In this document: piece by piece, positions 14,068-22,452 of the stretch
How positions within the stretch are numbered: position 1 is the first letter of the stretch
Layout of the letters: every line of letters starts with the position of its first letter
Source of the DNA: Candidatus Nanohaloarchaea archaeon
GTDB lineage: Archaea; Nanohalarchaeota; Nanosalinia; Nanosalinales; Nanosalinaceae
DNA: 22,452 nt
Direction: 5' to 3'
Assembly (NCBI GenBank): GCA_042218325.1
Contig: JBDGRE010000025.1
Span: forward strand, 1-22,452
Notes under the pieces: generated by a model
Databases searched by the model: none
Told to the model about the DNA's origin: nothing
Seen by the model: the letters and a program-made list of their open reading frames with translations, nothing else
Translations under genes and position numbers: made by a program

Positions 14068-14406
14068 TTACTCGTTTTTAAACTTTTGCGCCCTCTTGAG
14101 CGATTTTATGGCCTCGCTGATCTGGGAGTCAAGGTCATCGAGATCCGTGCCGTGTGACAGTTTCAGCTTCTTCTCGTGGACGATATCCGAGGGGCTCCAC
14201 TGCCCCGGGTAGTCGTAGTCATTGTCGTCCCAGTCGAAGTCGTCCAGCTCCTCCACGATGATAGTCTCCAGCTTCTCCACGAGCTGCACCAGCTTCTCGT
14301 TCGCCTCTTCGAGCTTCTCGTTCTCGGTCCTGAGTTCCTCTATCTTCTCCTGGCCCTTCTCCAGGGTGTCCAGAATGTAGACGTAGTCCTTGTCACCGGT
14401 CTCCAT
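14068..14406 (-). CDS. Hypothetical coiled-coil protein (112 aa)
   Basis: N-terminal heptads (LEKGQEKIEELRTENEKLEEANEKL), an acidic-aromatic linker (DDFDWDDNDYDY) and a C-terminal helix; TTAAAT about 25 nt upstream. Confidence 0.7.
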   Translation of the reverse strand: METGDKDYVYILDTLEKGQEKIEELRTENEKLEEANEKLVQLVEKLETIIVEELDDFDWDDNDYDYPGQWSPSDIVHEKKLKLSHGTDLDDLDSQISEAIKSLKRAQKFKNE

Positions 14407-14446
14407 AACCGTTGCTTCGGGAAAAGAGGATTTAATGGTGTCGGCT

Positions 14447-22221: not shown

Positions 22222-22411
22222 GGTCCACTAGCTCAGGGGTTAGAGCGCCGTCCTTATAAGGACCTCGCACAGAAAACATGTGCCGGAAAGGCCTGTGCGT
22301 TGCCTCCAACTGCCGCAGCAGTCGGCAGTGCTGACCGGCTCTGCCGGTCGACGGGCTGATGCCCGTCTTTAAGAGAGGCGGTGGTCCCGGGTTCGAATCC
22401 CGGGTGGACCA
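22222..22411 (+). tRNA. tRNA-Ile(UAU) with a 117-nt intron at 37/38
   Basis: Acceptor GGTCCAC/GTGGACC plus A73, D-stem GCTC/GAGC, anticodon stem CCGTC/GGCGG, loop CT-TAT-A|A and T-arm CCGGG-TTCGAAT-CCCGG. Exons are 22222-22258 and 22376-22411; CCA is not encoded. Confidence 0.92.
22259..22375 (+). other. tRNA intron with bulge-helix-bulge-type junction
   Basis: Central 4-bp helix CTTA (22253-22256)/TAAG (22370-22373), flanked by 3-nt bulges TA|A and AG|A that give canonical 37/38 cut sites. The intron-side outer helix is weak. Confidence 0.85.
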
Positions 22412-22452
22412 AACTCCTCGCAGAGTTTGATCATGCGCTTAAGGCTCCAGCG

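Follow-up and report, generated by a model that had tools for sequence, protein, structure and literature searches.

Archaeal tRNA introns are commonly viewed as short spacers holding just the splice motif, and archaeal introns circularise. In eukaryotes, the intron of tRNA-Ile(UAU) is needed for pseudouridylation of the anticodon by Pus1. The closest described phenomena to the locus presented here are the tRNA-Ile(UAU) intron of ARMAN and the intron transposition of the Thermoproteales. The pre-tRNA-Ile(UAU) of ARMAN-2 (Ca. Micrarchaeum) is reported to carry a 25-nt intron at position 37/38 (Fujishima et al. 2011, PMC3239211). In the Thermoproteales, highly similar introns in tRNA genes for different isoacceptors are attributed to spread at the DNA level, by a mechanism given as unknown (Fujishima et al. 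2010, as summarised in PMC4090602). The same review, from 2014, gives medians of 12 to 25 nt and a range of 11 to 129 nt for archaeal tRNA introns and describes a box C/D guide carried by the euryarchaeal tRNA-Trp intron (PMC4090602). Small single-subunit splicing endonucleases with an extra loop in DPANN archaea are reported to accompany a marked rise in disrupted tRNA genes (PMC5829648). For the phylum considered here, tRNA introns were found in the main texts of the literature for only one genome, within a tRNA census.

The window, i.e., the whole stretch of 22,452 nt that was analysed, contains near its end a tRNA-Ile(UAU) gene that resembles the ARMAN-2 gene, as the latter is reported, in belonging to a small DPANN archaeon without TiaS, in reading AUA by a UAU tRNA, and in having an intron at 37/38 that an archaeal endonuclease would cut. 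It differs in that the intron is 117 nt long and combines a family-conserved covarying hairpin with an inserted repeat, the strict splice motif not being its most stable fold; moreover, the endonuclease is of the single-subunit type (182 aa) here versus the three-unit enzyme described for ARMAN. As reviewed for the Thermoproteales, introns of closely similar sequence occur in tRNA genes for more than one isoacceptor (here Val, Thr, and Arg). Unlike in that account, however, what is shared is a cassette within an older intron instead of an entire intron together with its splice motif, and copies in both orientations lie in tRNA leaders and trailers and at sites away from tRNA genes as well. Like the euryarchaeal tRNA-Trp intron of the review, this is a long, conserved archaeal intron at 37/38, but it has no C box (the closest sequence, CUGAUGC at 22356-22362, deviates at 2 positions and does not occur in two of the related copies, G007 and G010), its CUGA motifs are unconserved, and a terminal C/D stem is lacking. 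With eukaryotic tRNA-Ile(UAU), the locus has in common the anticodon, the retention of an intron in all orthologues, and the requirement that AUG not be misread; the splicing system and the intron structure differ, and any intron-dependent modification is hypothetical for the archaeal tRNA.

The tRNA gene spans positions 22222 to 22411 of the window on the forward strand (Rfam tRNA model, 47.7 bits), with the insert placed after CUUAUA. ARAGORN run with its intron option (aragorn -i) called a tRNA-Ile(tat) with a 117-nt intron at position 38; without that option, it returned a wrong call, a tRNA-Leu at 22338-22411. The intron boundaries were fixed by aligning the exons with those of 39 orthologues, which gave a 5' exon at 22222-22258 (tRNA positions 1 to 37, with the anticodon TAT at 22255-22257), an intron at 22259-22375, and a 3' exon at 22376-22411 (tRNA positions 38 to 73). 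Both the Rfam alignment and aragorn -i placed the insertion between tRNA positions 37 and 38, as is canonical for archaeal tRNA introns. An independent copy of the stretch was present in a 187-nt contig from one DNA run, identical to 22225-22411 (0 differences). The DNA runs with the stretch were salt-lake metagenomes, and contigs of four DNA runs included other strains that shared the exons but carried different, shorter inserts; because contigs break at the tRNA, those of the four runs contained no filled or empty cassette allele for this strain. A 16-mer of the exon-intron junction was found in nanohaloarchaeal records (Nanohaloarchaea, Nanoanaerosalina); it is near-palindromic and had many chance bacterial matches. 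The genome itself amounts to 1.07 Mb in 35 contigs, with 55% G+C and an estimated completeness of 96%.

Immediately 3' of the tRNA lies a trailer hairpin (AACUC-CUCGCA-GAGUU, 22412-22427, forward strand); its sequence AACTCCTCGCAGAGTT, in the 22412-22452 region, recurs without change in the tRNA-Asn intron of the same genome, where it makes up the 16 nt that follow GCCG (C25:6890-6905). The last 41 nt of the window are also the end of contig C9 (G000:C9:14456-14510, G000 being this genome), and the two contigs therefore adjoin. Less than about 150 nt downstream of the tRNA, on the reverse strand of C9 at approximately 14330-14430, are two partial copies of the 3' end of this tRNA (..TTCGATTCCGGGTGGACCA and ..ACCGGGTGGACCA), which look like scars left by integration into the tRNA-Ile(UAU) gene.

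A preliminary description of the locus had presented the intron as a candidate new structured RNA made of four 7-bp stems, and all four stems can be read from the sequence at the coordinates given there. In hairpin 1 (22266-22299), CGCACAG (22266-22272) pairs with CTGTGCG (22293-22299) and encloses a 9-nt A-rich 5' bulge, AAAACATGT (22273-22281), and a 3-bp tip with a GGAAA loop, GCC-GGAAA-GGC (22282-22292). Stem 2 was described as ACTGCCG (22309-22315) pairing with CGGCAGT (22323-22329). Hairpin 3 (22333-22349) consists of GACCGGC (22333-22339) and GCCGGTC (22343-22349) around a UCU loop, and hairpin 4 (22350-22367) of GACGGGC (22350-22356) and GCCCGTC (22361-22367) around UGAU. Folding the intron alone yielded exactly these four hairpins, with a minimum free energy of -56.8 kcal/mol compared with -40.5 ± 3.7 kcal/mol for 200 dinucleotide shuffles (z -4.44), none of which was as stable. 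Together with the Rfam tRNA match and the aragorn -i call, this bears out a long, highly structured intron in the UAU tRNA. Motif reading likewise agreed that a canonical C/D layout is lacking. A search against Rfam gave no match at the gathering cut-off, and an E-value search returned the tRNA only, all other hits having E values of at least 0.074 and lying below their gathering thresholds; the intron thus matches no known Rfam family, as had been supposed.

Comparison across the phylum separated what the fold had joined. The tRNA-Ile(UAU) gene was found throughout 70 genomes of the phylum, and the 40 orthologues extracted all had an intron at this site, 37 to 146 nt in length (median, 59 nt). 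Hairpins 2 to 4 occurred at this place in only 4 of these 40 introns, namely, those of this genome and of G061, G010, and G007, and congeners were without the cassette. The variable lengths and this restricted occurrence speak against the four stems as one structured RNA, and nothing in the comparative data supports the further proposal of a guide, a scaffold, or a functional circular RNA. The intron most likely consists of two parts that differ in age and distribution, to judge from the sequences compared: a conserved 5' domain (part 1, 22259-22305) and a hairpin cassette (part 2, about 22307-22369).

Part 1 begins with N-GGAC-CU and the first strand of the 7-bp stem; a bulge on one side, rich in A, and a short tip, frequently with a GNRA loop, come next, and then the return strand and GUU-GCCU. 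When 23 sequences at genus level were aligned by MAFFT without a model, each of the 7 pairs in stem 1 had changed on both sides, and 93.0% of the cells were paired. R1, a covariance model trained on the intron part alone of 23 sequences, matched 38 of the 49 further genomes in family f1, always in a tRNA-Ile(UAU) intron, and 1 of the 20 genomes that lie outside f1, with one match per genome (two in G006); a phylum-wide search over the same 70 genomes brought no further match. The 40 orthologues above leave out six R1 matches (the second G006 copy, G051, G047, G046, G049, and G055). When 36 copies (13 of them outside the seed) were aligned to R1, an alignment that was fitted to the model and therefore leans towards structure, all 7 stem 1 pairs covaried and 98.8% of the cells were paired, as opposed to 27 to 44% when partners were slid by 1 to 3 columns; none of 500 shuffles attained the covariation score. 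Covariation among orthologues, the check that had been proposed, was thus found at every pair of stem 1 in hairpin 1, the conserved core of the domain; for hairpin 2, neither possible pairing covaried in 5 aligned copies, and hairpin 3 gave 2 of 7 pairs. Unpaired bases were constrained as well, the first three of the bulge being A in 33, 35, and 36 of the 36 copies. GGAC and GCC showed no covariation, although the neighbouring stem 1 covaries, and GGA was invariant (36/36).

Two other introns of the genome did not show this degree of conservation. With tRNA-Ile(UAU) as the query, matches in many genera ran through approximately 50 intron bases at 82 to 96% identity; with tRNA-Ile(GAU) (135-nt intron) or tRNA-Trp (139-nt intron) as queries, family matches were nearly all confined to the exons, and for tRNA-Ile(GAU) the exon matches overlapped in several subject genomes, i.e., the intron is absent there. 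The domain is also not complete everywhere: in genus g15 the intron measures 37 nt and forms a simple 5-bp hairpin that lacks the A-rich bulge and the tip, and the tip has been lost in several genera, so the full part 1 domain is dispensable. Part 1 is an intron domain maintained by selection across some 19 genera, with covariation as well as unpaired bases that do not vary; the tRNA concerned is the one that takes the place of the agmatidine system for AUA.

In the bulge-helix-bulge motif of archaeal tRNA introns, the splice sites sit in two 3-nt bulges on either side of a 4-bp central helix, with further helices beyond them; here the central helix and the 3' bulge are present, and two pairings are available on the 5' side. 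UAAG (22370-22373) pairs with C32-A35 of the exon to form the 4-bp central helix CUUA/UAAG, followed by the 3' bulge AGA, which contains the 3' splice site (AG|A; the whole element spans 22370-22376). GGAC (22260-22263) lies beside the 5' splice site, and GCCU (22302-22305) pairs with its GG.C; in short orthologues, GCCU or UCC abuts the central helix, and GGAC/GCCU is therefore identified as the intron-side helix of the splice motif. With cloverleaf and central helix enforced, the conformer that kept all four hairpins intact had an energy of -93.7 kcal/mol (at 37°C and standard salt parameters, as for all conformer energies here) and formed the local helix GG.C/G.CC; in it, the 61-nt cassette lies opposite the 5' bulge, so that the 5' splice site is not in a strict bulge. 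A strict-motif conformer, with GGAC/GUCU beside the central helix, reached -87.2 to -87.7 kcal/mol with hairpin 4 partly melted, the GUC of hairpin 4 overlapping this alternative helix. The unconstrained minimum was -98.1 kcal/mol, with the cloverleaf broken. We assume that the tRNA-Ile(UAU) intron would be spliced from the predicted folded form. Many tRNA-Ile(UAU) introns (G003, G065, G017, G002, G006, G061, and G060) are closed at their 3' end by another recurrent hairpin, CCAGC-loop-GCUGG with GUCUUAAG after it, which provides a canonical GGAC/GUCU helix.

The genome encodes one splicing endonuclease, EndA (182 aa), with N-terminal and catalytic domains (PF02778 and PF01974), as well as RtcB (PF01139). 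The RtcB match is split (profile positions 1-128 and 47-426) inside one open frame of 963 aa (G000:C1:101540-104257), which suggests a putative intein. No match to the TiaS domain PF08489 was found in this genome, which is about 96% complete; four archaeal control genomes did match. A UAU-anticodon tRNA is thus present without TiaS, and aragorn also listed one CAU tRNA. Codon use per 1,000, in 396 open reading frames of at least 300 codons, was 23.9 for AUA, 23.5 for AUC, and 3.4 for AUU. AUA as a major isoleucine codon in a genome without TiaS is an unusual pattern among archaea. Since so many AUA codons must be read and the agmatidine enzyme that usually serves them is missing, tRNA-Ile(UAU) is in heavy demand.

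We consider it probable, if far from certain, that this is an ordinary protein-spliced intron composed of an old, selected, clamp-forming hairpin domain and a selfish cassette that is tolerated by the endonuclease. Part 1, old and family-specific, would supply the intron-side helix GGAC/GCCU beside the 5' splice site, locked by the 7-bp stem; it would hold in shape a splice motif that is weak and A/U-rich, the central helix, CUUA/UAAG, having one G-C pair. This clamp role is something we infer. Part 2 would be a copy of a three-hairpin repeat that spreads as DNA within the phylum, into the introns and flanks of tRNA genes and a few further sites, and that was inserted here after GCCU and ahead of UAAG. 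The one endonuclease, of 182 aa, would tolerate it, and RtcB would rejoin the exons. In this proposal, hairpins 2 to 4 presumably have no function of their own. The sequence comparison also exposes what the proposal does not cover: a purely structural clamp does not account for the near-invariant AAA and the non-covarying GGAC/GCC. The conformer with four intact hairpins, in which the 5' splice site is outside a strict bulge, counts against the proposal as well.

Such constraint on unpaired bases would suit a reading of part 1 as a cis-acting maturation element, the intron recruiting or positioning a modifier of the UAU anticodon or withholding the tRNA from translation meanwhile, in the manner of the pseudouridylation of eukaryotic tRNA-Ile(UAU) or of the C/D guide of the tRNA-Trp intron. 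We regard this as unlikely, though several observations point its way: the domain is confined to tRNA-Ile(UAU), with one copy in each genome, the introns of tRNA-Ile(GAU) and tRNA-Trp show no such conservation, and the intron is kept in 40 of 40 orthologues. With TiaS absent and AUA a major codon, accurate reading of AUA versus AUG matters. Moreover, GGAC is complementary to exon bases G29-C32, and RNAalifold chose that helix, invariant in 22 to 23 of 23 sequences, so a second conformation is possible. An intron in tRNA-Ile(UAU) is reported for ARMAN as well (PMC3239211) and likewise for Korarchaeum (PMC6000648). Against such an element stand the dispensability of the full domain, given the 37-nt intron of g15 and the losses of the tip, and the lack of C/D or H/ACA boxes and of a two-sided guide pocket. 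A narrower form of the idea, in which part 1 would be a cis signal making modification or proofreading of the UAU anticodon intron-dependent in TiaS-less, AUA-rich archaea, strikes us as distinctly improbable; if true, it would be an archaeal counterpart of the intron-dependent anticodon modification in eukaryotic tRNA-Ile(UAU).

Returning to the proposal of a clamp domain plus a tolerated cassette, the case for the second component rests in the dispersal of part 2. The cassette starts with the hairpin 2 region (22307-22329), and hairpins 3 and 4 are its units 2 and 3. Related copies repeatedly form hairpin 2 by another pairing, CAACUGC/GCAGUUG, present here as an overlapping hairpin with one A·C mismatch (CAACUGC-CGCA-GCAGUCG, 22307-22313 with 22318-22324); across 5 aligned copies this pairing held in 34 of 35 cells versus 31 of 35 for the stem described previously, which is perfect in this genome. 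In hairpin 3, 2 of 7 pairs had changed on both sides (5 copies). A BLAST search with 22300-22375 detected related sequence in 8 of the 70 genomes, in introns of tRNA-Val, tRNA-Thr, and tRNA-Arg, upstream of one tRNA-Ile(UAU) gene, and in the interval separating two protein genes; the core of hairpins 2 and 3 was 88 to 94% identical in the tRNA-Val, tRNA-Thr, and tRNA-Arg introns of other genomes. The core hairpin pattern CAACUGC-N4-6-GCAGUUG occurred at 42 sites in 23 of the 70 genomes, compared with 4 sites for the reversed control pattern. Of these sites, 18 fell inside aragorn-predicted tRNA genes (16 in the intron), 4 more were inside tRNA genes by manual reading of truncated or complex genes, 9 lay within 100 nt of a tRNA gene, often 0 to 3 nt from its end, and 11 were elsewhere; in all, 31 of the 42 were in tRNA genes or no more than 100 nt away. 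Copies had both orientations relative to the tRNA, and the loops were frequently UACG or CGUA. In this genome, the cassette is single-copy, and a strict perfect-complement scan for SAACU hairpins recovered 2 unrelated sites. An exact 20-mer of the cassette core was present in 0 viral contigs and in 6 metagenome contigs, the latter in unrelated contexts with no tRNA and at about the level of chance.

Filled and empty sites could be compared at one protein-coding junction. In genome G038, the same three-hairpin cassette separates a class-V aminotransferase gene from a NifU_N gene, with 15 nt of the junction present as a direct repeat on its two sides. Other hairpin arrays occupy the aminotransferase/NifU_N junction in G040 and G034, with flanking repeats of 17 and at least 16 nt, respectively, and G027 has a single junction with no insert. 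The stop/start junction of the two genes (L029 1487-1584; L232, L233, and L236) is overlapping and is split by different hairpin arrays in three genomes. Because the junction is duplicated (15 to 17 nt) at each array, both genes keep their ends, and the contrast between filled and empty sites argues for insertion at the DNA level. We infer DNA-level mobility of part 2 on these grounds, and the earlier suggestion of a relic of a mobile element fits hairpins 2 to 4, given their dispersed copies and their presence in 4 of 40 orthologous introns. To our knowledge, no mobility enzyme or mechanism has been described for the hairpin cassette. A tRNA-associated hairpin repeat that enlarges introns by insertion would offer a testable route for intron growth, and for the sharing of sequence between introns, outside the Thermoproteales.

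The same dispersal can be read in another way, namely, that hairpins 2 to 4 and the CAACUGC family are functional RNA elements under selection, serving as stability or processing signals at leaders, trailers, and intron ends. The proximity of 31 of 42 sites to tRNA genes, many of them abutting mature ends or splice sites, could reflect a role in processing instead of selfish spread, and compensating changes that keep hairpins 3 and 4 paired in a few copies could indicate use at the RNA level. The frequent UACG or CGUA loops and the placement of the hairpin between CUGA and GUGAUGA-like boxes in tRNA-Thr, tRNA-Lys, and tRNA-Met introns of families f3 and f4 would suit this reading too. It is hard to reconcile with copies in both orientations relative to the tRNA, with the presence of the hairpins in only 4 of 40 orthologous Ile introns while congeners lack them, with copies after protein genes and in a gene junction with duplicated flanks, and with the single copy in this genome; we therefore doubt it. 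As for the f3 and f4 introns themselves, these are long (129 to 225 nt; L211 1855-2149, L212 1423-1652, L213 1458-1660, and L209 1298-1599) and have CUGA before the CAACUGC hairpin and GUGAUGA- or CGAUGAU-like boxes after it, which may be C'/D'-like motifs or embedded C/D RNAs.

That the whole 117-nt intron is one stable, perhaps circular, noncoding RNA whose four hairpins act together has in its favour the very stable fold and the circularisation of archaeal introns, but with lengths of 37 to 146 nt, the four-hairpin form in only 4 of 40 orthologues, and two parts that are distributed differently, it is very improbable. Two guide classes were considered and rejected: for a box C/D guide, CUGA occurs at 22331-22334 and 22356-22359 but RUGAUGA is missing, the copies in G007 and G010 lack the motifs, and Rfam gave no match; for an H/ACA guide, hairpin 1 has only a one-sided bulge and is followed by UUGCCU.

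Long folded introns are not peculiar to this tRNA. aragorn predicted introns in 25 of the 41 tRNA genes of the genome, 12 to 143 nt in length with a median of 74 nt; two of these predictions, Stop(tta) and Lys(ttt) on contig C16, look doubtful. Among the 24 introns of at least 30 nt that were scored, 7 had z values below -3 (median, -2.3), and the tRNA-Ile(UAU) intron ranked fourth (z -4.2 with separate shuffles). Such introns are therefore the rule in this genome, and the tRNA-Ile(UAU) intron is unexceptional among them. The phylum as a whole has unusually many and long tRNA introns, the median of 74 nt here contrasting with the 12 to 25 nt given in the review (PMC4090602).

Several other tRNA introns share sequence among themselves. 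The 5' intron motif NCCUCAAG followed by a hairpin is common to Gly-UCC, Leu-UAG, Gln-UUG, and Pro-CGG, and CCGAACU followed by a hairpin is common to Arg-GCG, Leu-CAG, Asn-GUU, and Lys-CUU. Bases 92 to 168 of the tRNA-Ile(GAU) gene (G000:C5:26369-26579), within its 135-nt intron, had matches of 78 to 86% identity at other loci (genomes G001, G054, G023, G057, G005, and G010) and, judged by these matches, appear to be another dispersed intron module. The 139-nt intron of tRNA-Trp (G000:C31:54308-54520) contains GUGAUGA and CUGA motifs and may retain a box C/D guide.
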